64,000 nt of DNA from an uncultured archaeon (GCA_964486045.1 CAZALK010000002.1:1-64000); one strand, 5' to 3'; numbered from the stretch's first letter, positions 12,680 through 29,679 are shown. Notes: generated from the letters alone by a model not told the origin. A program made the numbers and translations.

Positions 12680-13367
12680 TCTGGTAAATGGACAAGTTGA
12701 AGGTGAATCTGGATCTGGTATTGTTCCATATTTCTTTTCTCCTAAAGTTGCCGTAAATGCAGTTCAATGGGCAATTGGATTAGAATTATTACTATTGACA
12801 AAGAACCCATGGCAGGTTTTCATGACCACAGACCATCCAAACGGAGGACCTTTCACATCTTACCCACAAATCTTCAGTTGGCTTATGGATAAGAAAACTA
12901 GAGATGATGTTCTTTTGAATAAATGCTCCAAAAGAGCGTCAGAGAAAACACAATTGAAGGATATAGATCGCGAGTTCACATTGAATGAGCTTTGCATTGT
13001 CACTCGAGCAGGTACTGCTAAATGCTTGGGCATGACAGATAGAGGTCATATTGGGAAAGGTGCTATTGGAGATGTAGCTATCTACAAATTAGATCCAGAC
13101 AAAGCGGATGGACATGCGATTGAGAAAGCATTTTCTCTTGCTGCATACACGATAAAAGATGGTCAGATTGTTGTCAAAGACGGAAAAATTACAGCCACAC
13201 CAATGGGAACGACTATTTGTGCAGAAGGAAAAGTTAAAGATGAATTGATGGAATCAATGCTAGCTGACGTTAAATCCCATTGGAGAGATCATTATAGTAT
13301 TAATTTCAATAATTACGGTGTAGAAGATGCTTACGCTCCGAAAATGAAAGTTGTAAGTGGAATATAA
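12680..13367 (+). pseudogene. fwdA: 3' portion of formylmethanofuran dehydrogenase subunit A
   Basis: GQVEGESGSGIVPY...NAVQWAIGLEL...TTDHPNGGPFTSYP...YTIKDG; roughly the N-terminal 60% is absent. Confidence 0.85.
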
Positions 13368-13372
13368 ATCCT

Positions 13373-13743
13373 TTATTTCTTATTATTCTTTTCTGACTCT
13401 TTAACCAAATCACTAAAAATACTTTTAATAGATTGTTTATTTTCAGGAATGTCTTTAGTAATAATATCCCAAATAATAGTAAGATCTAATCTAAAATAAC
13501 CATGAGTGGCCAGATTCCTCAATCCAACCATTTCAGACCAAGGGACATTCGAGAATTTCTTTTTAATGTTAGAAGGAATATTTTTTGAAGCTTCTCCGAT
13601 TAACTCCAAATTTCTTATAACCGCATCGATCACCAATTAATTTTCTTTAAAACTCTCAAAGTTGAAATATGAATATAAGATTCAATCCTTTTAATAAATG
13701 TGATTATATCCTCAAAATAAATTTTAGTTGTCCTTTCTTTCAT
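13373..13743 (-). pseudogene. HepT/DUF86 HEPN RNase toxin, disrupted
   Basis: ATG 13743 overlaps the MNT stop (ATGA); frameshift plus in-frame TAA before LVIDAVIRNLELIGEA; RNLATH motif retained. Confidence 0.8.
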
Positions 13744-14030
13744 ACGAAGATCATATCTTTTAATACATCTTCTTTCATCTGAGGTCTTAATGAATTTCTT
13801 GTTGCTAAATCAACCTTCATTCCTAAAATGTTTTCAAGAAATTCTTTTAATGTGAAGAACTTCCATCCAATTGGCTGAAAAAATTCTACAAAAATATCTA
13901 TGTCGCTTTTATCTTTCTGAGTACCTTTTGAATATGACCCAAAAACACCGATTTTTTCTATATAGAATTTGTTCCTCAAATATTCCCTATGCTTTTTTAA
14001 GATTTCTTCTACTTTTTCTAGCTTCTTCAT
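13740..14030 (-). CDS. Minimal nucleotidyltransferase antitoxin (MntA)
   Basis: GSx10DxD motif (FGSYSKGTQKDKSDIDI); start probably ATG 14030. Confidence 0.88.
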   Translation of the reverse strand: MKKLEKVEEILKKHREYLRNKFYIEKIGVFGSYSKGTQKDKSDIDIFVEFFQPIGWKFFTLKEFLENILGMKVDLATRNSLRPQMKEDVLKDMIFV

Positions 14031-14359
14031 AAGACTTAACTTAAGATTTAAAAATTTGATTTTCAAGATAGATAAAAACTTTTTTATATAAATAATTTCA
14101 TTATATATTGCAATTTAGTAGAGATTGAGTTAAATTTTTTCAAATGACATTTTTCTAAAGCATTTTCATTAAATTAAAATCCAAATTTTTGTCCTTTTAA
14201 TTTATAACAAAAATTTAAATATATTTTCTTTTTGATGTAATAAGTTACATAAATATGATAACTACCTTTATTTAATTTCATTTTAAAAGTAAAAGAGGTG
14301 AATGGGATATCCTAGAGAAGGAACAAATTCCAAATTGTTTTAAAAGAACTAAAGCAGAA

Positions 14360-16246
14360 TTGAAAGAAGTTGAGAGTAATCGAAGAGAGAGAGTTAAAGA
14401 ACTTAATTGTCTTTATGGAATTTCTCAACTTGTTGAAAAACCTGAAGTATCATTAGAAGAGATTATACTTGGAACTCTTGAGTTGATCCCACCTGCTTGG
14501 CAATTTCCAGAAGTGACCAGTGCAAGAATTACATATGATAACAAATTGTATAAAACGGAAAATTTTAAAGAAACTGAATGGAAATTAACAACTCGAGTTG
14601 AGGTCAATGAGAAACAAATGGAAATAGAAGTTCATTACCTCGAAGATAACTCATTTCTTAAAAAAGAAGTAAATTTGCTAAAAAATATTGGAAAGCGGTT
14701 AAAGAATATTTTAGAGCATATGGAAGCTGAGCAGAAATTAAAGGAAACCGAAGAAAAACTAATACGTGATATAACTGAAATAAAGAAAACAGAAAGACAA
14801 TCAAAAGAATCAAAGGAAAAACTTAGCTATGTAAAAAATAATATTTCTATAATTTTAGGTTTTGTTTTTTCAGCTTTTTATTTACTTATAGAGGGATTAC
14901 TTGACAACTATATTTTCCTTCATACTGAGTTCCTCTTTCAGGATATATTTACAATTGATCCTCACGAGATTCTTGTGCATCTAATCCCAATCAGTTTAAT
15001 GGTATTTGCTAGTATATTCAGCCAACATTTGATCAACGCACAAAGAAAAACTGAAGATAAATTAAAAGAATCTAAAGAGGAATTAAAAAAATTAAACTTA
15101 GAACTGGAACAAAGAATAGAGGAAAGAACTAAAGATTTAAAAAAATCTGAACAAAAATATCGAGAATTATATGAAGATGCCCCAAACGCATATTTCACAA
15201 TTAAACCAGACAAATCTATAAAGAGTTGTAATCAAGCTGCGGTAGAGCTTTTAGGTTATTATAAGGAAGAATTTCAAAACATTAAGTTTTTTGATTTATA
15301 TTATAATTCACCAGAGGATTTACAGAAACCCAAAAGGTTATTTAAACAATTCTTAGAGGGGAAAAATATCCAAGATGTAGAAATTCAAATGAAACATAAA
15401 AATGGAAATCCTATCTGGGTAAGCTTAACTGTAAAACCTGTGAGAAATCAGAAGGGTCAGGTTGTAGAATCTCAATCAATGGTGATAAATATCACCGAGC
15501 GCAAGAGAACAGAAGAATTAATCATCGAAGAAAACAAAAAATTAGCAGAACTTAACAAAATTAAAAAAAATCTAATAACACGAGTCTCACATGAATTAAA
15601 AACCCCTTTAAATTCAATTTATGGTGCCATCCATATTCTTATGAATTTTTATCGAGATAGAATAGATAAAGAGATCTTAGAATTTAATAATATTATCTAT
15701 AAGGGATGTATTAGGCTAAAAAAATTAATAGAAGATTTAATGGATATCTCAAAATTAGATCATGGTAAAATAACATTAAAGATGAAAAAAGAAAATATCA
15801 TTAATACGCTGATGAGTTGTGTTTCAGAAATTAACCATATGGCTACACGACGAAATCTTAATATAAATATTGATCTTCCGAAAGTATTATTTGTAGATTT
15901 CGATAAAATAAGAATCGAACAAGTCTTTATAAATATTTTATCAAATGCTATAAAGTTCACACCTCCCAACGGCTCAATATTCATATATCTCAAAGAAAAA
16001 TACAAAAATATCGAAATATCCGTAAAGGATACCGGGATTGGGTTAACTAAAGATGAAATGAAACATTTATTTAAACAATTTGGAAAAATTGAAAGATATG
16101 GTGAACAAATGGAAGTAGATATTGAAGGTTCAGGATTAGGTCTATATATTGCGAAACAAATCATTGAACTACATAGTGGGGATATAATCGTTGAATCAGA
16201 AGGTAGGAATAAAGGTTCGACTTTTACAATCAGATTAAATAAATAA
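14360..16246 (+). CDS. Membrane PAS sensor histidine kinase (GAF-like N-terminus, 2 TM, PAS, HisKA, HATPase)
   Basis: RERVKELNCLYGIS; H-box SHELKTPL; NAIKFT, DTGIG, GSGLGL boxes. Confidence 0.92.
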   Translation: MKEVESNRRERVKELNCLYGISQLVEKPEVSLEEIILGTLELIPPAWQFPEVTSARITYDNKLYKTENFKETEWKLTTRVEVNEKQMEIEVHYLEDNSFLKKEVNLLKNIGKRLKNILEHMEAEQKLKETEEKLIRDITEIKKTERQSKESKEKLSYVKNNISIILGFVFSAFYLLIEGLLDNYIFLHTEFLFQDIFTIDPHEILVHLIPISLMVFASIFSQHLINAQRKTEDKLKESKEELKKLNLELEQRIEERTKDLKKSEQKYRELYEDAPNAYFTIKPDKSIKSCNQAAVELLGYYKEEFQNIKFFDLYYNSPEDLQKPKRLFKQFLEGKNIQDVEIQMKHKNGNPIWVSLTVKPVRNQKGQVVESQSMVINITERKRTEELIIEENKKLAELNKIKKNLITRVSHELKTPLNSIYGAIHILMNFYRDRIDKEILEFNNIIYKGCIRLKKLIEDLMDISKLDHGKITLKMKKENIINTLMSCVSEINHMATRRNLNINIDLPKVLFVDFDKIRIEQVFINILSNAIKFTPPNGSIFIYLKEKYKNIEISVKDTGIGLTKDEMKHLFKQFGKIERYGEQMEVDIEGSGLGLYIAKQIIELHSGDIIVESEGRNKGSTFTIRLNK

Positions 16247-16259
16247 AGTAGGAAATTTT

Positions 16260-17108
16260 TTATTTTTTAGATAAATAATTTAACAGAATATCAAATTCAG
16301 GAAAATTGAAAGGTTTTAAAAAATAACCGTCAGCCTTAGTCTCATCCATATTTTCTTCTAATTCATTACCTGGTATTGCTGTTATGTAATAAATTAGTAC
16401 ATCTCTCAAATTATCATTTGATTTTATCATTTTACAAATTTCATATCCATTTGTTTTAGGTAAAATTATATCCAATAATATTATTTTAGGAATATGGTGT
16501 TTTAATTCTATCATTGCTTTAGATCCTGATTTTACTGATTTACTCGAATAACCCCTTAGGTTAAAATATTTAACCAATACTTTGTTCGTTGCCTCGTCGT
16601 CATCCACAATCAAAATATCATATTTTAAGTCTTTAGGTTTATAATTTACTAAAGTATCGTTTATTATACTTTCAAGAGTTTCACTTTGATCGAGAATATC
16701 CTTTAGAATAAATAAAATATTAGCATTTAAATTATCTCTATAATTTTCAATTAATATGTAGGTAAGACCCTTTATAGATGTTAAAGGCTCCTTCAAATCA
16801 TGGGAAAGATTTGATTTTGTCTTCTTAGAGACAACCATTGAAAAAAAATCTATATAAAAATCTACAGCTTCTCTAATTAGTTTCGATTTTGTCGTAAATT
16901 TTTTTTCTCTTTCTAGAAATTCTTCCCATTTATCCAGTGTTACTTCAGAAACTATTAGTGTAATTCTTTTTTTATCTTTCTCATAAATTTTTTGACTTTT
17001 TTCCCATTTTTTAATAACTTTAGTCCCAGAACCATTTGAAATAACACTTTTACCACTCTTCCTATTATTTTGGTTTATTTCTTTCGTTTTTTTACGATTG
17101 TTAGAGAT
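16260..17108 (-). CDS. Response regulator: ribbon-helix-helix + HisKA + receiver
   Basis: Frame stays open 90 codons upstream of ATG 16838 and encodes KKRITLIVSE..LDKWEEF..TKSKLIREAVDFY (RHH); SHDLKEPL; ILIVDDD...LLDIILP...FLKPF; start inferred at ATC after SD AAGGTGAT. Confidence 0.8.
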   Translation of the reverse strand: MSNNRKKTKEINQNNRKSGKSVISNGSGTKVIKKWEKSQKIYEKDKKRITLIVSEVTLDKWEEFLEREKKFTTKSKLIREAVDFYIDFFSMVVSKKTKSNLSHDLKEPLTSIKGLTYILIENYRDNLNANILFILKDILDQSETLESIINDTLVNYKPKDLKYDILIVDDDEATNKVLVKYFNLRGYSSKSVKSGSKAMIELKHHIPKIILLDIILPKTNGYEICKMIKSNDNLRDVLIYYITAIPGNELEENMDETKADGYFLKPFNFPEFDILLNYLSKK

Positions 17109-17816
17109 TTACATCACCTTAAACATGAAATTTTTTAAAATTATTTTAAGACTAAATTAATTTTTGGCTATTAAAATATTTTTTAAAAATCTGTTAATAA
17201 TTTATCTATAAATTAAAAGAATCTTTAACAAATTAAATTTTTATATTAATATATTTTTGATTAATTATAATTTTTAAAACAATAGAATTTAGGCTCTTAA
17301 TTTTACTTAATGTCTTAAGTGTATAAATTTCATTCTCTACTATTAATAAACATATTAAAAATTTTTTATTTCTTCAAAACCACAATATTTTAACTCATTA
17401 TTCAAATCTTTTTCCTAATCTCACTTAATTATTCCAAAAAATATATAGAGTTTATATATTATTTGATAAACACCTGAAAATCTAAAAAGTGTATCGAATT
17501 TGCATAAAAATGCTTTATTTTTAAAAATATTATCTAAAACTTAAAGATTGCTTTAATCTTCCTGTAATTAATTTTCTAATAATATCAATATATTTATTAT
17601 AAATATCTTTATTTATTGTGTATAAATAAATATTATTTTAAATATATTGTAATATTTATTGTTTTTGTTATAATAAAGATTTAAATATAAAGTCTTTGTT
17701 GGTATAAATAAGTAATTATTATGACTTTTTTTATTAATATTCTAAAAAAAAACATAAAGTTAAAAAAAAAATCATGATAAGAAATTAGCTTTACTGAAAT
17801 AAAGGTTTAAAGAAAA

Positions 17817-19667
17817 ATGAAAATAAGAGATAAATTACTTATTGGGTTTACAGTCCTAATTGCAATCACAAGCGTTTTGGGCGTAGTAAGTGTCGTTCAG
17901 CTTAACACTATGAATGGCTATTACACTGAATTAGCAAATGTGGACTCAAAAGCCATGGAATTAATGCAACAAATGAAATTAGAAGTAGATATTATAATTC
18001 GAGATATGTTCATGTATATAGATGGTGAAACAACTGGTAAAAAAACCGACATCAACGAATCTGTTCAACAATTTGATGATTATTATACTGAAGTCAGAGC
18101 TTTGCTTCCCGCATTTGCCGATCGACTAGATGAACTTGAGGATGACCATAATTTAATAGTGGGTTATATCATAGATCCAGGCACAGGAGTGCTTGTAGAG
18201 CAAGATTCTATTTGGGCTCAAATACTTAATCTTCTTGCATTACATGCAGAGCTCGATGGAGATATAGATGTTTTATTAGGTATGATAACTGATGCAACCA
18301 TGAAACTGAATGTAACTGAAATGGGGTATTATCTCGCAATGCAAATGTTTTATGTATACGAATACATTTCGAATCCTGATGATTTGACCAAGAGTGAGTT
18401 CGCCGCTGCAGAGGCTGGTTTTGATGCCAGTGTTACTAATTTAACGGCGTTTTATGATCCAGTAAATGATTCTGTTATATACGATGCGGTTATAGAGATG
18501 GATGCTGATCATGCTGAATTTGCGGGTAACGTTACAGACGCAAGTGTTGGGATTTTCTCTCTGAAGGATTCTATAGAAGTTAAGCATATAGTTATCGGTG
18601 ACCTACTTGATGAATTAACAAACGATTTACTTTTAATAGACATTGATATAGAAGCTGAAGTAGATGCAAATAAAGTAGGTGCAGCTGCTGCCATGTCATC
18701 AGCGTTAATTATAACTATAACAATGATTGTAGTCGCAATCGTGGCAGGATTAGCTATTGCGTTCCCAACAATTAGGAGCATTACAAAGGCGATTGGTGGT
18801 TTAGTTAAAACAGCAGAATTTATAGCTAAAGGAGATCTTACAAACGAAATTGAAATATCAAAAAAAGTAAAAAGTGAAACTGATTTATTAAAAAATTCTT
18901 TCGGAGTAATGCAAGAGAATTTAGTCAAAGTAATCTCTAGTACCCAAACTGCAAGCATAAATGTGGCAAACATAGCAACAGAATTAGCTGCAAGTTCTAG
19001 CGAAGTAAACGCAGCTTCCGAAGAAATTTCTTCCAGTACACAAGAAGTTGCAATGACGGTGCAAACCCAGGTTAAAGCCCTTACTGATATTAGTTCTATG
19101 GCCAATGAAATTCAATCTCTATCACATGAGGTTAAAAGTTCCGGCAATGATATAGATAAAGTCATGGAAATTATTGTAGGAATTTCCGAACAAACCAATT
19201 TACTCGCTCTTAATGCAAGCATTGAGGCTGGGCGGGCTGGTGAATACGGAAGAGGCTTCGCAGTTGTAGCGGATGAAGTACGAAAACTTGCTGAAGAGTC
19301 TAAGGTATCAGTTGAAACTTCTAGTAATAAAATCGCGGAAATTCTTTCTCGAATAGATAGAACAGTTGAACTTATAGGAAATATTACAAATGATATTCAA
19401 GGAACTTTAGCGGGGCTTGAACAGACCTCTAGTGCAGTTGAAGGAATTAGCTCATCCACGGAACAACAAACGGCTTCAATGGAAGAAGTTACATCCACAG
19501 CTAACAAATTGGGCTCGTTGGCAGAAGAGTTGAAAAGTGAATTAGAGATGTTTGTAATCGAGCAAGAAGGCATAAGAGGTCAAAGTAGAGAAGCTAAAAG
19601 TAGACCTCGAAGATTCGCGGAAAAGAAATCAAGCGTCGAAAAAGAAGTAGTATTAATTAATAAATAA
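17817..19667 (+). CDS. Methyl-accepting chemotaxis protein, copy 1 (double four-helix sensor, HAMP, signalling domain)
   Basis: Two TM helices; [35 protein letters not shown]. Confidence 0.95.
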
Positions 19668-19678
19668 TTTTTTTTTTT
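19668..19678 (+). terminator. Oligo-T archaeal terminator after MCP1 (similar tracts follow MCP2 and MCP3)
   Basis: T-run immediately after the stop codon. Confidence 0.55.
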
Positions 19679-19742
19679 AAATTTATACAAAATAGTAATA
19701 AACATTTAAAAAATTAGGATAGTCCGTACGCCTTACGAGCTC

Positions 19743-19790
19743 ATTACATACATAGGGTTTATCTATTAGAGATAAACTCTTGTATGTAAT
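19743..19790. repeat. Conserved long hairpin, copy 1
   Basis: ATTACATACA/TGTATGTAAT outer stem and AGGGTTTATCT/AGATAAACTCT inner stem. Confidence 0.75.
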
Positions 19791-19817
19791 CTAAATTATG
19801 AGAAGGATGCAAGAAAT

Positions 19818-20171
19818 ATGAGTGAAAATTTTGCTGATTGTGAAGTATGTGGTGAATATTGCGGGGATAAAAAGTACAAAGCAAGACTCTTAATTGAGTT
19901 GCCAGAAGAATTACAAGAGAAGTTAGATAAATCCCAGGCATGGCTTTGTTTTAAATGGGTTAGAAAACATTGCTTTGAAACTATAGGTAATATAATGTAT
20001 GATAATCAAAAAAATTATTCATCGATAAACGATAACTATTTAGCAAAATCTGATAACGGCCTTCACACTTGCGGGTACACAATAAAAGATGGTCTGATTG
20101 TTGTTAGAGACAGAAAAATTACAGTTACACCATTAGGTACAAAAATTTGTGGAGAAGGGAAAACCTTTTGA
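19818..20171 (+). CDS. Chimeric small ORF: CxxC zinc-finger-like N-terminus fused to a decayed fwdA segment
   Basis: CEVCGEYC N-terminus; C-terminal YTIKDGLIVVRDRKITVTPLGTKICGEGK matches FwdA at 13140-13230. Confidence 0.5.
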   Translation: MSENFADCEVCGEYCGDKKYKARLLIELPEELQEKLDKSQAWLCFKWVRKHCFETIGNIMYDNQKNYSSINDNYLAKSDNGLHTCGYTIKDGLIVVRDRKITVTPLGTKICGEGKTF

Positions 20172-20295
20172 AATAGCACTTTTACCACTCTTCCTCTTAT
20201 ATTGGTTTATTTTTTCTGTTTTTCTAAGATTGTTAGAGATTTATATCACCCTGAATACAAAATTTTCTGAAATTATTTTAAGATTAAATTAATTT
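20172..20295 (-). pseudogene. Duplicated 5' end and SD region of the RHH-HisKA-REC gene
   Basis: Near-copy of 17039-17165. Confidence 0.75.
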
Positions 20296-20524
20296 AATAA
20301 AATATTTGTTATAAATTTCTTTATTTATTCTGTAAAAATAAATATTATTTTAAGTATATTGTGATATTTATGGTTTGTGTTATAATAAAGATTTAAATAT
20401 CAAATCTTTGTTAGTATAAATAATTATTAAGACTTTTTTTATTAATTTGCTAAAAAAAAACATAAAGTTAAAAAAAAAATCTAGATAAGAAATTAGCTTT
20501 ACTGAAATAAAGGCGTATAGGAAA

Positions 20525-22375
20525 ATGAAAATAAGAGATAAATTACTTATTGGGTTTACAGTCCTAATTGCAATCACAAGCGTTTTGGGTGTAGTAAGTG
20601 TCGTTCAGCTTAACACTATGAATGGTTATTACACTGAATTAGCTAATGTGGACTCAAAAGCAATGGAATTAATGCAACAAATGAAATTGGAAGTAGATAT
20701 CGTAATTCGAGATATGTTCATGTATTTAGATGGTGAGATAACTGGTACAAAAACTGAAATTAACGAATCTGTTCAACAATTTGATGAATATTATACGGAT
20801 GTCAGAGCTTTGCTTCCCGCATTTGCCGAGCGACTAGATGAGCTTGAAGGTGACCATAATGAAATAGTTGGCTATATCATCGATCCAGGCACAGGAGTGC
20901 TTGCAGAGCAGGATGCTATATGGGCTCAAATTAATAATCTTCTTGCACTACATGCAGAACTCGATGCGGATATAGATGTTTTATTAGGTATGATAACTGA
21001 TGAAACTATGAAATTGAATGTAACTGAAATGGGGTATTATCTCGCCATGCAAATGTTTTATGTATATGAATACATTTCGAATCCTGATGATTTGACCAAG
21101 AGTGAGTTCGCCGCTGCAGAGGCTGGTTTTGATGCCAGTGTTACTAATTTAACGGCGTTTTATGATCCAGTAAATGATTCTGTTATATACGATGCGGTTA
21201 TAGAGATGGATGCTGATCATGCTGAATTTGCGGGTAACGTTACAGACGCAAGTGTTGGGATTTTCTCTCTGAAGGATTCTATAGAAGTTAAGCATATAGT
21301 TATCGGTGACCTACTTGATGAATTAACAAACGATTTACTTTTAATAGACATTGATATAGAAGCTGAAGTAGATGCAAATAAAGTAGGTGCAGCTGCTGCC
21401 ATGTCATCAGCGTTAATTATAACTATAACAATGATTGTAGTCGCAATCGTGGCAGGATTAGCTATTGCGTTCCCAACAATTAGGAGCATTACAAAGGCGA
21501 TTGGTGGTTTAGTTAAAACAGCAGAATTTATAGCTAAAGGAGATCTTACAAACGAAATTGAAATATCAAAAAAAGTAAAAAGTGAAACTGATTTATTAAA
21601 AAATTCTTTCGGAGTAATGCAAGAGAATTTAGTCAAAGTAATCTCTAGTACCCAAACTGCAAGCATAAATGTGGCAAACATAGCAACAGAATTAGCTGCA
21701 AGTTCTAGCGAAGTAAACGCAGCTTCCGAAGAAATTTCTTCCAGTACACAAGAAGTTGCAATGACGGTGCAAACCCAGGTTAAAGCCCTTACTGATATTA
21801 GTTCTATGGCCAATGAAATTCAATCTCTATCACATGAGGTTAAAAGTTCCGGCAATGATATAGATAAAGTCATGGAAATTATTGTAGGAATTTCCGAACA
21901 AACCAATTTACTCGCTCTTAATGCAAGCATTGAGGCTGGGCGGGCTGGTGAATACGGAAGAGGCTTCGCAGTTGTAGCGGATGAAGTACGAAAACTTGCT
22001 GAAGAGTCTAAGGTATCAGTTGAAACTTCTAGTAATAAAATCGCGGAAATTCTTTCTCGAATAGATAGAACAGTTGAACTTATAGGAAATATTACAAATG
22101 ATATTCAAGGAACTTTAGCGGGGCTTGAACAGACCTCTAGTGCAGTTGAAGGAATTAGCTCATCCACGGAACAACAAACGGCTTCAATGGAAGAAGTTAC
22201 ATCCACAGCTAACAAATTGGGCTCGTTGGCAGAAGAGTTGAAAAGTGAATTAGAGATGTTTGTAATCGAGCAAGAAGGCATAAGAGGTCAAAGTAGAGAA
22301 GCTAAAAGTAGACCTCGAAGATTCGCGGAAAAGAAATCAAGCGTCGAAAAAGAAGTAGTATTAATTAAGAAATAA
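20525..22375 (+). CDS. Methyl-accepting chemotaxis protein, copy 2
   Basis: Same motifs as copy 1; 616 aa. Confidence 0.95.
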
Positions 22376-22454
22376 TTTTTTTTTTTTTAAAATTTATACA
22401 CAATAGTAATAATCATTTAAATAATTAAGATAATTCGTACACCTTACCAGCTTT

Positions 22455-22500
22455 TTACATGCATAGGGTTTATCTATTAGGGATAAGCCCTTACATGTAA
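22455..22500. repeat. Conserved long hairpin, copy 2
   Basis: TTACATG/CATGTAA and AGGGTTTATC/GATAAGCCCT stems. Confidence 0.75.
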
Positions 22501-22569
22501 TCTAATTTAACCAAAAGAATTATTCATTGATAAACGATAACTATTAAGCAAGATCTGATCACGGCCTTC

Positions 22570-22692
22570 ACACTTGCATCGTATACAATAAACGATGGAA
22601 AAATTATCACTATATCAATGGGAACGACAATCTATGCCAAAGGGAGTATAAAAGATGAAAAAATGGAATCATCGTTAGTAGATGTAAAATCT
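22570..22692 (+). pseudogene. Decayed fwdA 3' relic
   Basis: Reads LASYTINDGKIITISMGTTIYAKGSIKDEKMESSLVDVKS versus FwdA LAAYTIKDG...KITATPMGTTICAEGKVKDELMESMLADVKS. Confidence 0.75.
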
Positions 22693-22873
22693 AAAATAGT
22701 CATAAAAAGGGTTATTTTAATGAAATTTGAAGATAAAAGTTTGAAAAGAAAATAATAATTAAAAGAGTTAATAAAAACGATAAAGTAGTTAATATTGGGA
22801 TATAGTTAATGAAAATTACGCAAATATTAATTTAACATGTAAAAATCTAGAAAAATTAAAACACAATTTATTA

Positions 22874-23080
22874 ATGGATACAAACATGATAACTGAAAAT
22901 TTAAAATCATACGCAATTACTAGGAAGAGAATAATTGATGATACTGTTGCTAATTTAAAAGAAACAAAGTACAATCTTAAAACAGCTAAAATTAATAACT
23001 CTTCACTTAAAAGAACTATACATGTGGTTAATGACAATTCAAAAAAAATCCCTGGTTTTTCACTTAAATTACCAAATTAA
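22874..23080 (+). CDS. Small hypothetical coiled-coil protein
   Basis: 68-aa ORF only. Confidence 0.3.
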   Translation: MDTNMITENLKSYAITRKRIIDDTVANLKETKYNLKTAKINNSSLKRTIHVVNDNSKKIPGFSLKLPN

Positions 23081-23338
23081 ATAAAAAATTTTAGTAGAAC
23101 TATTTAGATAGTTTTTTTTTATTTCCTCCAATCTGATGTATAATTGGTTTAAATTTAATTATTTTCTAGTTATGTAATATCTAAATTTGTCATCATCGAT
23201 TTATTTTTCCAACAACATTTATAGCTTGATTTTATATTAATATCATAAAATTTAATATTTTAAGACTAGTTCAGAATCTTATCTTCTTGAATTAAAAAAA
23301 GTATTTAGTTACACCCCTCAGGCAGGGATTGAAGTCTC

Positions 23339-24715
23339 ATGATAGCTAACCTGAAAAAGAAAAAATTCATCAATTCAAATAATGTTTCTATAATTTTAGG
23401 TTTGGCTTCATCAGCTATTTACTTACTTATAGAGGGATTAATTGACACCTATATTTTAAATGAAACTCTTGTCCTTTTTCAAGATATATTTACAACTGAT
23501 GCTCGTGAGATTTTATTGCATCTAGTTCCGACCGGTTTAATTTTATTTATTGGGATATATAGACAAGAATTGATCAACGGACAAAAAAAAGCGGAAGAAA
23601 AATTAAGAGATTCTGAAGAAAAGTATCAATTATTAGTTGAAACGTCCCCCATTTCAATAATTCTACTCAATACTAAAGGAATTATTGTTGATTGTAATAA
23701 AATTACAGAAGAAATTGCTGCTCTTCCAAAGAGCAAAATTATTGGTAAAAAAAATTTTGAAATCTACAAACTCACTGGTGAAAACCATCACAAGGAATTA
23801 AATTTTTTTACGAAAGCAATGAGTGATGAATTTAGTAAACCTTTTGAACTAAATATTGTAAATAGGAATGGCAAAAATATATGTTTGGAAATGTCAATAT
23901 CATCCATTAAAATTGAAGGAGAAATATTTTTTCAAATAGCATCAATAGATATATCTTCTCGTAAAAAAGCAGCCCTTCTTATTAAGGAAGAAATCGAAAA
24001 ATTACATGATCTAGATAAACTTAAAAATAATTTAATAGTCAGATCTTCATATGAAATAAAAAACCCATTAACAGCAATATGTAATGCATCGGAAATCCTA
24101 TTGCTTGGTTATAAAAATGATTTAGATGAAAGAGCTAATGAATTACTAAAAATTATAAATAATGGGGGCAAGAGATTAAACAAATTATTAACAAAGTTAA
24201 CCGAAATCTCAATAATTAAATCTAAAAACAAGAGGTTAGAATTTAAATTTTCAAATATAACTAAAATAATTCATGAATGTGTTAATGAATTATCTTACTT
24301 AGTTTTAGAACGTGAACAATTTCTAAACCTCCTTATAGATGAAACAGTGTATCTTTATATGGACAGCTTAAAAATTAAGCAAGTTATTTCGGAAATAATT
24401 TTGAATGCAATACACAATACACCTACAAAAGGGATGATATCTATTAATTTACAAAAACATTCTGATTTCATAAATATTATTATAAAAGACACTGGTGTTG
24501 GATTTACTGCGGAAGAAAATTTAGTAATATTTAGGGAATTTGGGAAAATCGAAAGATATGGGAAGGGTATGGATGTTGTTACAGATGGCATAGGAATGGG
24601 ATTATATTTTTCTAAGAAAATAATAGAATTACATGGTGGAAAAATTTGGATGGAATCTGAAGGAAGAAATAAAGGTTCTATTTTTATAATACAGTTCCCT
24701 ATAACGATAGAATAG
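23339..24715 (+). CDS. Membrane PAS histidine-kinase paralog lacking the phospho-accepting His
   Basis: TM region paralogous to 14360; H-box reads RSSYEIKNPL; ATP-binding boxes NAIHNT, DTGVG, GIGMGL retained. Confidence 0.88.
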   Translation: MIANLKKKKFINSNNVSIILGLASSAIYLLIEGLIDTYILNETLVLFQDIFTTDAREILLHLVPTGLILFIGIYRQELINGQKKAEEKLRDSEEKYQLLVETSPISIILLNTKGIIVDCNKITEEIAALPKSKIIGKKNFEIYKLTGENHHKELNFFTKAMSDEFSKPFELNIVNRNGKNICLEMSISSIKIEGEIFFQIASIDISSRKKAALLIKEEIEKLHDLDKLKNNLIVRSSYEIKNPLTAICNASEILLLGYKNDLDERANELLKIINNGGKRLNKLLTKLTEISIIKSKNKRLEFKFSNITKIIHECVNELSYLVLEREQFLNLLIDETVYLYMDSLKIKQVISEIILNAIHNTPTKGMISINLQKHSDFINIIIKDTGVGFTAEENLVIFREFGKIERYGKGMDVVTDGIGMGLYFSKKIIELHGGKIWMESEGRNKGSIFIIQFPITIE

Positions 24716-24740
24716 AAATTCAACAAGATTGTTTAAGGAT

Positions 24741-25583
24741 TTATAAATAATGAAACACACTTTTTAATTTTGCTAAATCAAAAGGTTTTAAAAAATATCC
24801 CTTTGCACCTGTAACATTGGTAATCTTTTTTGCTTCTTCTTCTGACATAACGGTTATGAAGAAAATTGGAATACCCTGAAAAACTTTCTTGGATTTAATT
24901 TTATGGTATACATCATTTCCCTTTATGTCTGGTAAAATTATACTTATAAGAATCAATTTGGGGGTTGCTCTAGTTAACTCTTCTAATCCTTTTGTACCAT
25001 TTGTTACACCCTTACTTGAATATCCATTTAATTCAAAAAAATCTTTAAGAACTGTAATTGTTGGTACGTCATTATCAATTATTAAAATATCATATTCCTG
25101 CTTGTATTGTTCAGGTTCTATTACAGAAAGGATCTCAGTTATTTTATCTTCGAGTTTTTGACTTTGAGAATATATTTCTTTAATCTTTAATAAAATTTCA
25201 GTATCCAGCTTATCTGAATAGTTATCTATGATAATTTGTGAAAAACCCTTAATTGGAGTTAAAGGAGATTTTAAATCTTTAGTTAGATTTGAAACATCTT
25301 TTATATAAGATAATTTTGGTTCTAACTCTACATAATTTTTCACAGCAGTTCTGATTAACTGTGAAATTGTCGAGATTTTATGTTTATCAACATATTCCTG
25401 CCAAAGTTTTTTGGTCTCAGGAGAAACTAAAGTCGTAATTCTTTCTTTTTCCTTAATGGAGCCTGATGTTCTTCTTCGCCACTTTTTGAAACTCTCAGTA
25501 ATGATCCCATTCCAAATGGCATGTTTTCCAGTTTTTTTTTCATATTCCTTCATATCTGCTGTTTTTTGTACAAAAATACTCAT
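24741..25583 (-). CDS. RHH-HisKA-pseudoreceiver regulator
   Basis: RHH (ERITTLVSPETKKLW..TISQLIRTAV); HisKA with H->K (TKDLKSPL); receiver with D->S (LILISIILP); start probably ATG 25583. Confidence 0.85.
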   Translation of the reverse strand: MSIFVQKTADMKEYEKKTGKHAIWNGIITESFKKWRRRTSGSIKEKERITTLVSPETKKLWQEYVDKHKISTISQLIRTAVKNYVELEPKLSYIKDVSNLTKDLKSPLTPIKGFSQIIIDNYSDKLDTEILLKIKEIYSQSQKLEDKITEILSVIEPEQYKQEYDILIIDNDVPTITVLKDFFELNGYSSKGVTNGTKGLEELTRATPKLILISIILPDIKGNDVYHKIKSKKVFQGIPIFFITVMSEEEAKKITNVTGAKGYFLKPFDLAKLKSVFHYL

Positions 25584-25789
25584 CCTAGTAAACCTATAAA
25601 ATTTAATGATTGCTATCACATATTATGAAAAAAATATGAGGATTTTTCATCATATATTTTATTTATCATTAAAATAATTATCCTTCTATTTAAATTTTCG
25701 ATAATAAATTATAATGATGGAATAAGTTTCAACAATCATCATAATTTTATTATTACTTAGTATTATTGGTTCCTATAATGTTGCTTATT

Positions 25790-26110
25790 TTAATCGAGAG
25801 AAAGTAAGTAAACGTATTTTGAAATGTCAAATTTCTCAGTTTTTAAAGATTGAAAATCTTCCTCTAATATTTCATTTCTGATGTTTTCAAGAATTTTATT
25901 ACCATTATTTAATGAAGGAGTTATTGCTATTTTTATGACCGATTTGGATCTGTTGAGATATAGATTATAATAGAAAGTTTTTTGGGGAGTGTCGAAATCA
26001 ATAAACATTTTAATTTCCAAATCTGATTCTCTTCCCAAATTTTTGTTAACTAACTCTTGCTTTCCATAATAAGATAATTTCATATATGTAGGATTATTAA
26101 CTTCCTTCAA
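25790..26110 (-). CDS. Hypothetical protein
   Basis: 106-aa ORF with a purine-rich upstream site. Confidence 0.55.
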   Translation of the reverse strand: MKEVNNPTYMKLSYYGKQELVNKNLGRESDLEIKMFIDFDTPQKTFYYNLYLNRSKSVIKIAITPSLNNGNKILENIRNEILEEDFQSLKTEKFDISKYVYLLSLD

Positions 26111-26453
26111 TTATTTTATACACTTCCTTTATTTGCTGTTCGTTCTGGAAAAAAGTTTATTTTTAGACTATATATTTAAAAATATTGTACATAAATTTAA
26201 AGATATGTATTTTTATTATAACAATTTAGGTAATAATATGGCTTTATTATAACAAAATCTAGCAAGTTATGCTCTATGACAAATAAAATATGTTATAACA
26301 AAGATTTAAATATAACTAATTTGATAATAAAATCAAAATATTATAATAAAAAATGTTGAATTGATCTTATTTTTGATAACAAATCGTAAAACTCTAAAAA
26401 TTGTTATAAAAAAGATCTTTTCGAAAGTACTAAAATATAAGTGACAATAAAAA

Positions 26454-28304
26454 ATGAAAATAAGAGATAAATTACTTATTGGGTTTACAGTCCTAATTGC
26501 AATCACAAGCGTTTTGGGCGTAGTAAGTGTCGTTCAGCTTAATACTATGAATGGTTATTACACTGAATTAGCTAATGTGGACTCAAAAGCCATGGAATAT
26601 ATGCAACAAATGAAATTGGAAGTAGATTATGTAATTCGAGATATGTTCATGTATTTAGATGGTGAGACAACTGGTACAAAAACCGACATCAACGAATCTG
26701 TTCAAGAATTTGATGTTTATTATACTAAAGTCAGAGATTTGCTTCCCGCATTTGCCGTTCGACTAGATGAGCTTGAGGATGACCACAATGAAATAATTGG
26801 TTATATCATAGATCCAGGCACAGGAGTGCTTGCAGAGCAAGATGCTATTTGGGCTCAAATTACTAATCTTCTTGCACTACATTCAGAACTTGACGCGGAT
26901 ATAGATGTATTATTAGGTTTGATAACTGATGCAACCATGAAATTGAATGTAACTGAAATGGGGTATTATCTCGCCATGCAAATGTTTTATGTATATGAAT
27001 ACATTTCGAATCCTGATGATTTGACCAAGAGTGAGTTCGCCGCTGCAGAGGCTGGTTTTGATGCCAGTGTTACTAATTTAACGGCGTTTTATGATCCAGT
27101 AAATGATTCTGTTATATACGATGCGGTTATAGAGATGGATGCTGATCATGCTGAATTTGCGGGTAACGTTACAGACGCAAGTGTTGGGATTTTCTCTCTG
27201 AAGGATTCTATAGAAGTTAAGCATATAGTTATCGGTGACCTACTTGATGAATTAACAAACGATTTACTTTTAATAGACATTGATATAGAAGCTGAAGTAG
27301 ATGCAAATAAAGTAGGTGCAGCTGCTGCCATGTCATCAGCGTTAATTATAACTATAACAATGATTGTAGTCGCAATCGTGGCAGGATTAGCTATTGCGTT
27401 CCCAACAATTAGGAGCATTACAAAGGCGATTGGTGGTTTAGTTAAAACAGCAGAATTTATAGCTAAAGGAGATCTTACAAACGAAATTGAAATATCAAAA
27501 AAAGTAAAAAGTGAAACTGATTTATTAAAAAATTCTTTCGGAGTAATGCAAGAGAATTTAGTCAAAGTAATCTCTAGTACCCAAACTGCAAGCATAAATG
27601 TGGCAAACATAGCAACAGAATTAGCTGCAAGTTCTAGCGAAGTAAACGCAGCTTCCGAAGAAATTTCTTCCAGTACACAAGAAGTTGCAATGACGGTGCA
27701 AACCCAGGTTAAAGCCCTTACTGATATTAGTTCTATGGCCAATGAAATTCAATCTCTATCACATGAGGTTAAAAGTTCCGGCAATGATATAGATAAAGTC
27801 ATGGAAATTATTGTAGGAATTTCCGAACAAACCAATTTACTCGCTCTTAATGCAAGCATTGAGGCTGGGCGGGCTGGTGAATACGGAAGAGGCTTCGCAG
27901 TTGTAGCGGATGAAGTACGAAAACTTGCTGAAGAGTCTAAGGTATCAGTTGAAACTTCTAGTAATAAAATCGCGGAAATTCTTTCTCGAATAGATAGAAC
28001 AGTTGAACTTATAGGAAATATTACAAATGATATTCAAGGAACTTTAGCGGGGCTTGAACAGACCTCTAGTGCAGTTGAAGGAATTAGCTCATCCACGGAA
28101 CAACAAACGGCTTCAATGGAAGAAGTTACATCCACAGCTAACAAATTGGGCTCGTTGGCAGAAGAGTTGAAAAGTGAATTAGAGATGTTTGTAATCGAGC
28201 AAGAAGGCATAAGAGGTCAAAGTAGAGAAGCTAAAAGTAGACCTCGAAGATTTGCTGAAATAGAATCAAGCGACGAAAAAGAAATAGTATTAATTAAAAA
28301 ATAA
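26454..28304 (+). CDS. Methyl-accepting chemotaxis protein, copy 3
   Basis: Same motifs as copy 1; 616 aa. Confidence 0.95.
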
Positions 28305-28402
28305 AATATTTTTTTTTATTATTTAAAAAATCATTATAAATTTATACAAAATAGTAATAAACATTTAAAAAATTAGGATAATTCGTACGCCTTACGAGCT
28401 TT

Positions 28403-28448
28403 TTACATGCATAGGGTTTATCTATTAGGGATAAACCCTTACATGTAA
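28403..28448. repeat. Conserved long hairpin, copy 3, followed by an fwdA relic (~28520-28580)
   Basis: TTACATG/CATGTAA and a perfect AGGGTTTATC/GATAAACCCT stem; downstream EYTIKDG*IILKDGEIT. Confidence 0.75.
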
Positions 28449-28723
28449 TCTAATTTAACCAAAAGAATTATTCATTGATAAACGATAACTATTAAGCAAG
28501 ATCTCATAACGGCCATCACAATTGTGGAGTACACAATAAAAGATGGCTAGATCATTTTGAAAGATGGAGAAATTACCTGAAATAAAGTGAAGAAATATAT
28601 GATTGGGAATTCCTATATTCTAAGTGTTAAAAAGAGAAATATTAATTTTTAAAATACTTTTATATTATTGTTTTTTATGAGTTCACTTATTTCTCTAACA
28701 AGTTGTGTATACACGGTTATATA

Positions 28724-28807
28724 TTATTCCAATGGCTTAGATTCTCTTAGTTTTTTATTTTTCTTTATTAATTTTATTTCTCTTTTTAAAATTTTTTCTT
28801 TTTTCAT
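28724..28807 (-). CDS. Small basic peptide (27 aa) or remnant
   Basis: Strong SD AGGTGA before ATG; MKKEKILKREIKLIKKNKKLRESKPLE. Confidence 0.3.
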   Translation of the reverse strand: MKKEKILKREIKLIKKNKKLRESKPLE

Positions 28808-29016
28808 TCTTATTCACCTAATTTAAAATGAAATCTTCTATGTAACTAGATTTCAAACTCCTCTTTTTAAGGAATATGGTAAATTTATGAAACACAGAAT
28901 TCCCTAAATTAATTTTCGAGAAAAGTTTAAAAACTTTTTTGATAAATTGGGAGAAATTTTAATTTAAAATTGAAAGTTGGCGTTAATTCAAATATTTCAT
29001 GAGCTATTAATTAAGT

Positions 29017-29679
29017 TCAAAAAGTATTTTCCATAAATTCTTCATTTAAAAAGTAGATTATCTTTTTTGACAAGCGTTTTCGAGTAATTACATTAAAATC
29101 TTCAAGAAAATCAAGGTATTTTGTTGTAGTGTTTATGTGAATCTTCAAATCTGTTGAGATTTTAGTCTTTGTAATTCCAATATCATTATTTTTAAGGTAA
29201 TCTATTATCATTCTACTTTTATCCTTGGAAGTAAAATAATTGAACTTGATATTTTTTAAATTAAAGTTAAAATGAAAATAAATCTCATGGTTGTCAATCC
29301 TTTCAGTTTTGATATATTTGAATTTCAATAACATACTCAGGTGCCAAATTACGACATGATTACTCATTTCTAATCTCTTTACAATTCTATTAAAATAAGT
29401 TCCTGGATTCTTTACAATAAAATCATATATCTTCTTACGTGTTAAATTTTTTAATATATCATTTTTAGTAAACTTGGAACCTTCTACAATTAGATTTTTG
29501 TTAACTAAAACTCTAAGCACATCTTCAATTCCTCTAAGATTAATGTTAATTGAAGCCATTTTAAACCTGGCGTGTATAAACGGGAGTATTTCTTTCATAT
29601 TGAAGTACCGGTTCTTATTAAGATACTCTTGAACAACGTTTAAAACAATTATTTCTTGTTTATGTATCTCATCTGGCAT
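29017..29679 (-). CDS. Double winged-HTH transcriptional regulator, cassette 2
   Basis: IYDFIVKNPGTYFNRI..HLSML plus a second wHTH; paralog of 32548. Confidence 0.85.
   Translation of the reverse strand: MPDEIHKQEIIVLNVVQEYLNKNRYFNMKEILPFIHARFKMASININLRGIEDVLRVLVNKNLIVEGSKFTKNDILKNLTRKKIYDFIVKNPGTYFNRIVKRLEMSNHVVIWHLSMLLKFKYIKTERIDNHEIYFHFNFNLKNIKFNYFTSKDKSRMIIDYLKNNDIGITKTKISTDLKIHINTTTKYLDFLEDFNVITRKRLSKKIIYFLNEEFMENTF

Follow-up and report, generated by a model that had tools for sequence, protein, structure and literature searches.

Receptor genes as candidate targets of a chemoreceptor-linked ribbon-helix-helix two-component system in a Loki-type Asgard archaeon

A 64,000-nt stretch of DNA (the window) from an uncultured Loki-type Asgard archaeon, whose 5.18 Mb genome is 99% complete, encodes two membrane histidine kinases (HK1 and HK2), two response regulators with a putative ribbon-helix-helix (RHH) DNA-binding part (RR1 and RR2), and three methyl-accepting chemotaxis proteins (MCP1 to MCP3). 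The best-supported reading, which we infer, is that the receptor genes are targets of the chemoreceptor-linked RHH two-component system encoded among them. A preliminary description of the sequence had offered this as one of two options; it is compatible with all our findings and is supported indirectly by conserved gene linkage, by restriction of the MCP-linked regulator clades to genomes with chemotaxis (Che) proteins, and by shared promoter boxes. For their own signalling the receptors almost certainly use ordinary chemotaxis proteins, whose genes lie in another part of the genome. We put at about 0.5 the probability that the kinase/regulator pair works by phosphorylation and that an RHH dimer adjusts transcription of the neighbouring receptor genes, perhaps also of the che operon and HK1. 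Response regulators that bind DNA are rare among archaea and, to our knowledge, almost nothing is known about signal-responsive gene regulation in Asgard archaea.

Open reading frame (ORF) listing and Pfam scans gave the gene order HK1 → ← RR1, MCP1 →, MCP2 →, HK2 → ← RR2, orf106, MCP3 → (Table 1). As the preliminary description had stated, the layout HK → ← RR / MCP → is present twice with one additional MCP between the copies, and RR2 and MCP3 flank a 106-aa ORF (orf106). The same description had called the locus a duplicated module. The repeated layout stands, but a single recent segmental duplication of the whole module was ruled out by identities of roughly 40% for the kinases (38%) and regulators (41-43%) against 96-97% for the receptors, and by the 1,256 nt that all three receptor genes share unchanged. 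The HK and RR paralogues are strongly diverged whereas the MCPs are near-identical, and the two modules are therefore of different ages. The locus may be pictured as two old paralogous two-component pairs interleaved with three receptor genes that would have been homogenised by gene conversion.

Table 1. Features of the kinase-regulator-receptor locus, in positions of the window.
Feature	Position	Strand	Description
HK1 promoter	14200..14222	+	TTTATAACAAAAA box directly upstream of TATA box TTTAAATA, ~155 nt before HK1 start
HK1	14360..16246	+	membrane histidine kinase, 628 aa; 2 transmembrane (TM) helices, PAS, HisKA, HATPase_c
RR1	16260..17108	-	RHH-DHp(HisKA)-REC regulator, 282 codons from ATC 17108
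MCP1 promoter block	17666..17688	+	TGTTATAATAAAGATTTAAATAT, box plus B recognition element (BRE)/TATA box, ~150 nt before ATG
MCP1	17817..19667	+	616 aa; 4HB_MCP sensor, TM, HAMP, MCPsignal
Identical 1,256-nt core	18360..19615 (MCP1), 21068-22323 (MCP2), 26997-28252 (MCP3)	+	DNA identity
orf117	19818..20171	+	patchwork ORF, probably not a gene; not a family gene
Copy of RR1 5' end and upstream DNA (17030-17163)	20162..20295	+	87%, repeat analysis
MCP2 promoter block	20378..20400	+	identical to that of MCP1
MCP2	20525..22375	+	616 aa; 4HB_MCP-HAMP-MCPsignal, 97% identical to MCP1
HK2	23339..24715	+	458-aa TM-PAS-HisKA-HATPase kinase, paralogue of HK1
RR2	24741..25553	-	RHH-DHp-REC paralogue; ORF extendable to GTG 25619
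orf106	25790..26110	-	orphan, TTG start
Box cluster TTATAACA/TGTTATAA	26216..26409		palindromic boxes at 26216, 26247, 26291/26293, 26402
MCP3	26454..28304	+	616 aa; 4HB_MCP-HAMP-MCPsignal, 96% identical to MCP1

The preliminary description was headed by the absence of Che proteins and proposed a genome-wide search for CheA and CheW. The absence holds for the window, where tblastn with the genome's own CheA, CheB, CheC, CheD, CheR, CheW and CheY gave no match at E ≤ 1e-3, but not for the genome: all CheW-domain matches lie on contig C10, in a complete operon encoding CheW, CheY, CheA, a CheW-CheC fusion, CheR, CheB, CheD and CheC, with a second CheB in addition. This CheA, with the domains Hpt-P2-dimerisation-HATPase-CheW, is the only one in a genome with 10 MCP-domain matches. 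Of the 24 genomes of the genus, 13 have MCPs and 11 have CheW, essentially the same ones; the mismatches are G013, with broken MCPs only, and G019, which is 79% complete. The signalling domain matched PF00015 at E 4e-33, and the tip of MCP1 to MCP3 is canonical, aligning closely with the CheA/CheW-binding tip of E. coli Tsr and also with TM1143; the alignment with Tsr suggests only a shorter bundle. Together the che operon, the canonical tip and the co-occurrence of MCP and CheW make a Che-independent receptor unlikely. The receptors would dock to the single CheA/CheW core, which is encoded with CheY, CheR, CheB, CheC and CheD on C10. Also encoded in or beside the operon (C10:66900-80150, L012) are a Ras-like GTPase, a DUF11 protein and three unannotated ORFs.

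These data bear on the other option of the preliminary description, in which the MCPs feed into the adjoining kinase/regulator; in its strong form, receptor signals would go straight to that pair, past Che, by way of membrane or receptor-tip contacts. Both kinases and the MCPs are located in the membrane, their linkage is conserved (see below), and no motor was found for Che to steer. We nevertheless consider direct signalling very improbable, and its premise fell with the complete che operon and its co-distribution with MCPs, and with the CheA/CheW-binding consensus kept in the receptor tip. Most MCPs have no HK or RR neighbour, and in G002 a single MCP coexists with a full che set. HK-RR pairs were moreover found in genomes devoid of MCPs (L058 in G012 and L064 in G005), which implies that the pair is an autonomous two-component system. 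The phyletic data thus fit a bypass of Che poorly.

In both regulators Pfam recognised two domains, HisKA and Response_reg, confirming two of the three parts named in the preliminary description. The third, the RHH, is suggested by weaker lines: sub-threshold Pfam matches, a predicted structural pattern and a published classification. The N-terminal segment is conserved between RR1 and RR2 (KERISLYVS...STLSKLIREAV) with the strand-helix-helix pattern of RHH proteins, and 7 of 10 N-terminal fragments matched RHH_1, RHH_3, RHH_5 or RHH_9, all under the Pfam cut-offs (E 0.005-0.14). An AlphaFold model of RR1 (44 relatives, predicted local distance difference test score 80) places an extended segment at residues 45-54 and helices at 55-68 and 74-93, ahead of a long helical hairpin (95-154) corresponding to the DHp and a receiver at 165-281. 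Foldseek with the whole RR1 model returned mainly receiver domains and was uninformative on the RHH, as was a profile search of the PDB. The architecture RHH-HisKA-REC has already been listed for the Loki-type archaeon GC14_75 (Galperin et al. 2018, J Bacteriol, PMC5847659). RR1 and RR2 have the same domain order (RHH, HisKA without HATPase, C-terminal REC) and come from the same lineage, and are members of this type; the publication lists the architecture only, with no partner kinase, tandem pair, MCP linkage, promoter boxes or pair without phospho-acceptors.

The start of RR1 is unusual. As an ATG-initiated ORF the gene spans 16260-16838 and encodes HisKA and REC, while the RHH-like part extends in frame to 17108 with no ATG, GTG or TTG ahead of it; the earliest canonical start, ATG 16838, would omit the RHH. 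The ancestral ATG (17114-17112) runs directly into a TAA (17111-17109), which is followed by ATC 17108, and the closest relatives (P0001-P0003) begin MSSITNN. Either RR1 uses a non-canonical start, or a stop has arisen just past the ancestral start, or the sequence contains an error.

HK1 has the features of a class I (HisKA) kinase, with the H-box SHELKTPL and the N, G1 and G2 boxes NAIKFT, DTGIG and GSGLGL all present. RR1 retains the H-box His of its DHp (SHDLKEPL) and the receiver Asp (LLDIILP), and its receiver is complete (DD, D, T, K). The kinases linked to RR genes are 44-56% identical to the HK1 core, compared with about 30% for other kinases. In the proposed mechanism the kinase would detect a cytoplasmic or membrane cue via its PAS domain and phosphorylate the receiver, and the RHH dimer, held together by the DHp, would then bind differently to the operators of promoters in its vicinity. 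Its most likely targets would be the adjacent receptor genes and the HK1 gene, with the che operon as a possible further one. Phosphotransfer from HK to RR, DNA binding by the RHH and a role of the boxes as its operators are inferred, the argument for phosphotransfer being the conserved tail-to-tail adjacency of HK1-like kinases and RRs. HK1 also carries an N-terminal domain of ~130 aa (14360-14830) that is cytoplasmic, precedes the TM helices and contains the motif ELNCLYGIS...; it has no Pfam match, is absent from HK2 and is 53% identical in a kinase of G008 (L075:11436-11816).

In module 2 all three phospho-acceptor residues are lost while both ORFs are intact. The H-box His of HK2 is replaced by Tyr (SYEIKNPL) with the N, G1 and G2 boxes retained, so that HK2 lacks one feature of a class I kinase; RR2 has Lys for the H-box His (TKDLKSPL), Ser for the receiver Asp, and DN for the acidic pocket DD. 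Across 53 family members the DHp His is present in 50 and the receiver Asp in 52, and RR2 alone lacks both. HK2 is likewise the sole kinase without the H-box His among about 25 RR-linked kinases compared, and the two form the only such pair in these sets. Module 2, if functional, would work without phosphotransfer.

To follow the linkage in relatives, 40 loci around RR matches were fetched irrespective of their neighbours, HK1-like kinase cores and MCP signalling domains were mapped in them, and a maximum-likelihood tree of 53 RRs was computed. With RR2 as query the RR family was found in all 24 genomes of the genus, as full-length relatives in 21 and as weak partial matches in G010, G014 and G020; relatives were also found in a sister family. 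With RHH and DHp alone as query, members of the RR family were recovered from 37 of 40 genomes in the taxonomic family and from none of 160 other sampled genomes of the phylum. The slow-evolving RR clades form a tandem RR pair that nearly every genome has and that is without a neighbouring HK or MCP. In the source genome this tandem RHH-DHp-REC pair lies at C1:428103-430224 (L084:8098-10273), near genes for transcription factor B (TFB, TFIIB) and a leucine-rich-repeat protein; the pair (also L077-L083) is conserved across the family, and its promoter has a conserved block AATAAAAAAACATTAAATA...GTTCTTTTATTA.

The fast-evolving clades behave differently in the genus. An MCP lies within 2.5 kb of 16 of the 27 non-tandem RR copies, and an HK1-like kinase within 2.5 kb of 16 and within 5 kb of 20 of them, the RR and kinase genes mostly tail-to-tail with gaps of 10-120 nt. 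In G008, six of eight RR copies are linked to an MCP, whereas 21 MCPs spread over 4.9 Mb would lead one to expect about 0.2. Such linkage was found in at least seven genomes and is distributed over at least three separate clades of RRs; all four nearest relatives of RR1 (L054, L061, L062, L065) show it. MCP-linked clades are present in 10 of the 11 Che-positive genomes of the genus (the exception is G006) and in none of the 13 Che-negative ones; in the clade of L056, L058, L064 and L067 there is always a kinase and no MCP. The preliminary description had named two findings that would together speak against it, a complete che operon elsewhere in the genome and a linkage not conserved in relatives. 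The operon exists, and the HK-RR-MCP synteny is conserved.

A third triad is probably present in the source genome, split across the ends of contigs C26 and C5. C26:1-6620 (L085) encodes a 912-aa triple-PAS kinase, an orf119-MCP276 operon and an MCP of 571 aa (MCP571), and C5:1-931 (L086) starts with an RR. In relatives (L045, L068, L070) this order is kept on a single contig. The genes orf119 and MCP276 are translationally coupled by stop/start overlap (TAAATG/TAAGTG).

Genes can also lie together with no regulatory meaning, if fast-evolving HK, RR and MCP genes accumulate in recombination-prone islands and are copied together. The region is dynamic: an MCP gene has been duplicated in tandem, gene conversion and gene fragments are seen, and a HepT/MNT toxin-antitoxin pair lies next door. 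Individual genomes carry between 0 and 8 RR copies, the orientation of the MCP relative to the RR differs among loci, and MCP3 looks recent at module 2 (sensor dS 0.19-0.28 compared with about 40% protein identity of HK and RR). Yet the adjacency persists in at least seven genomes and over RR clades with no more than 35-47% identity, presence and absence track Che exactly except in G006, and rare elements are common to RR and MCP-operon promoters and to HK1, MCP and che promoters. On balance we regard such a shared history as an unlikely explanation of the linkage.

The promoters themselves share sequence elements. A block TGTTATAA(T/C)AAAGATTTAAATAT lies about 150 nt before the ATG of MCP1 to MCP3, and is present at MCP3 despite diverged flanks; its core is palindromic, (T)TGTTATAACA(A). 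Boxes resembling TGTTATAACA abut the TATA boxes of HK1, MCP1 to MCP3 and the che operon. The 8-mers TTATAACA/TGTTATAA occur 555 times in the genome. The interval 13500-29500 contains 9 such sites where about 1.7 are expected, all of them upstream of HK1 or an MCP, and the sole genomic cluster of at least three boxes within 130 nt is the one between orf106/RR2 and MCP3, of which the third box abuts the MCP3 TATA box. The composite ATAACAA-N1-6-TTTA[AT]ATA was found 10 times in the genome, including at HK1, MCP3, MCP571 on C26 and the che operon (C10:80106). By hand alignment the HK1 and che-operon promoters are alike at about 28 of 30 positions, and comparison with relatives showed an ATAACA box, some 22 nt ahead of the TATA box of che, to be kept in four genomes. 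The boxed promoters of HK1, the MCPs and che have leaders of 140-185 nt; an Rfam scan of 13500-29500 gave chance-level matches only, with no known riboswitch in the long MCP leaders.

A second element was found in a sister clade, MCP276→RR, where the TATA box of the RR gene itself is overlain by three direct TGTA[AT]AA repeats with 18-20 nt spacing. Of the five triple TGTA[AT]AA clusters in 640 kb of loci, four are at RR promoters of this clade, and there is one in the whole source genome. The first repeat (GTGTAAAA with the TATA box) also occurs in the promoter of the orf119-MCP276 operon; 2 of 5 genomic and 7 of 7 locus matches to it are at RR or MCP-operon promoters. The shared boxes point to co-regulation. 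We take them as leads, not proof, assign them to no binder and refer to them as candidate operators only. The possibility that the TGTTATAA boxes are operators of the tandem RR pair was rejected, as the tandem-pair promoters have no consistent site. A block TGTTATAATAAGATTTTAAATA, near-identical to the MCP1 and MCP2 promoter, is also present at C1:153783 (L091:3714-4284), upstream of a gene for a 174-aa Arf/Rag-like small GTPase.

A receptor array with no motor might have a transcriptional output. Archaellin (PF01917), FlaD/E (PF04659) and CheF (PF04283) had no match in the source genome, and among 41 genomes of the order none gave an archaellin match and one a CheF match, compared with 16 for CheW; the combination of CheF and archaellum genes that marks archaeal F1-type chemotaxis was accordingly not found in the source genome. 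Two weak matches to T2SSE ATPases were rejected as archaellum motors, one being a PIN-ATPase fusion and the other having only unannotated neighbours. The RHH-DHp-REC regulator could then be the transcriptional or feedback arm of the chemosensory array, with CheA, or a DHp-His relay to or from CheY/CheB, exchanging phosphoryl groups with it. The confinement of MCP-linked RR clades to Che-positive genomes and the box shared by the che promoter with HK1 and the MCPs would fit, as would the DHp His, whose retention in 50 of 53 regulators without an ATPase domain suggests a phosphorelay step beyond HK→Asp. This reading is kept alive by that His, which a simple HK→Asp scheme leaves unexplained. We nonetheless judge an array output quite unlikely, and equally doubtful its fuller form, in which the MCP-linked regulator would be a phosphorelay node coupling CheA signalling and the PAS kinase to transcription of MCP, HK1 and che. 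In most loci the RR has a dedicated HK1-like kinase tail-to-tail with it at some 10-120 nt, as is usual for cognate partners, and the same RR family occurs in Che-less genomes as tandem pairs and as the HK-only clade. CheA and CheW genes were never found in triads, neither in the window nor in loci L044-L083, which were screened only with HK, MCP and RR queries; the places listed for CheW in relatives lie outside these RR-centred loci. Dedicated CheA/CheW genes encoded with a receptor and an output regulator, as in chemosensory systems of the alternative cellular function (ACF) type, were therefore not found. Divergent archaellins, finally, might evade PF01917.

Several observations weigh against receptor genes as targets of the RHH two-component system. 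The loci are paralogous and the genomes related, and they are non-independent observations. The nearest relatives of RR2 (L053, L055) have the kinase and no MCP, and only about one fifth to one quarter of the MCP genes in these genomes adjoin an RR. The boxes were defined on the same promoters in which they were counted, leaving the che-operon match and the genome-wide rarity as the independent evidence, and the TATA-proximal box of the che promoter is limited to the source genome and G003. Unbiased k-mer enrichment in 11 MCP upstream regions yielded nothing past multiple testing (best 8-mers p = 1.5e-4 to 4e-4 over 1,729 tests), and the promoters of RR1 and RR2 themselves are without the 8-mer. 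In RR1 the RHH part has no canonical start codon, and in the regulators generally the conserved His of the DHp is superfluous in a plain HK→Asp scheme.

Chemosensory pathways with transcriptional output are known from Myxococcus, where clusters of the Che3-CrdA type encode their own CheA and CheW. The triads described here resemble these in that receptor genes lie near a phospho-regulated transcription factor and motor output may be absent, and differ in having no CheA/CheW and a classical kinase beside the regulator instead. Comparable too are two archaeal HisKA-type systems, FilI/FilR1 of Methanosaeta and LtrK/LtrR of Methanococcoides, in which the receiver of FilR1 and LtrR is C-terminal (PMC5847659). 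As there, a PAS-HisKA-HATPase kinase adjoins a receiver-containing DNA-binding protein with a C-terminal receiver. Unlike there, the predicted output is an RHH and not a helix-turn-helix or winged helix-turn-helix, the regulator has its own DHp, in which the His is conserved although an ATPase is absent, the genes converge and do not share an operon, and module 2 is without phospho-acceptors. The proposed logic, a pair that sets the expression of a receptor which in turn signals via a Che core, is similar to that of Borrelia, where the two-component system Hk1-Rrp1 is reported to control the chemoreceptor gene for MCP5 (PMC11723614). The protein families are unrelated, and genomic linkage is not needed there; in our case the link consists of synteny and boxes only.

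In the literature searched, the linkage, the Che co-distribution, the candidate operators and the pair without phospho-acceptors appear to be undescribed. The RHH-DHp-REC family thereby gains a context, with a cognate kinase subfamily, a persistent chemoreceptor link, co-distribution with Che and candidate operators. Since this lineage has a Che system and no recognisable motor, any handle on the control and the targets of that system helps to make Asgard signalling testable. If the receptor genes are targets, the cell would adjust its receptor repertoire to conditions; if the regulator is a phosphorelay node, the pathway would run from chemoreceptor to gene rather than from chemoreceptor to motor. 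HK2 and RR2 offer a natural case of a two-component pair without phosphotransfer in which both genes are intact.

The receptor genes have a history of their own. The shared core corresponds to nt 544-1799 of each 1,851-nt gene and has no differences in all three, while nt 66-543 contain 59 variable sites with pairwise dS of 0.19-0.28 and dN/dS of 0.15-0.31. Identity over 1,256 nt alongside a diverged 5' part of about 540 nt in the same genes indicates gene conversion, or a mosaic, across the HAMP and signalling part; an assembly effect is also possible. The sensor part is older and has diverged moderately under purifying selection. Neither positive selection nor a mechanism that generates diversity was supported for the sensor, in view of the dN/dS values and the occurrence of all types of base substitution. 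The copy of the RR1 5' end ahead of MCP2 shows that MCP2 is the product of a tandem duplication whose unit started within the RR1 5' end, with its border at 20162-20295. As the nearest relatives of RR2 have a kinase and no MCP, MCP3 looks recently arrived at module 2.

Among the remaining ORFs, orf106 belongs to no Pfam family, and tblastn gave it no match in the rest of the genome or in the loci fetched. The pieces of orf117 resemble a fragment of an amidohydrolase gene (13146-13232) as well as remnants that lie downstream of MCP2 and MCP3. Immediately upstream of HK1 is a toxin-antitoxin pair (13373-14066) of a HepT-like ribonuclease and an MNT nucleotidyltransferase, and beside them lies a truncated amidohydrolase gene at 12795-13367.

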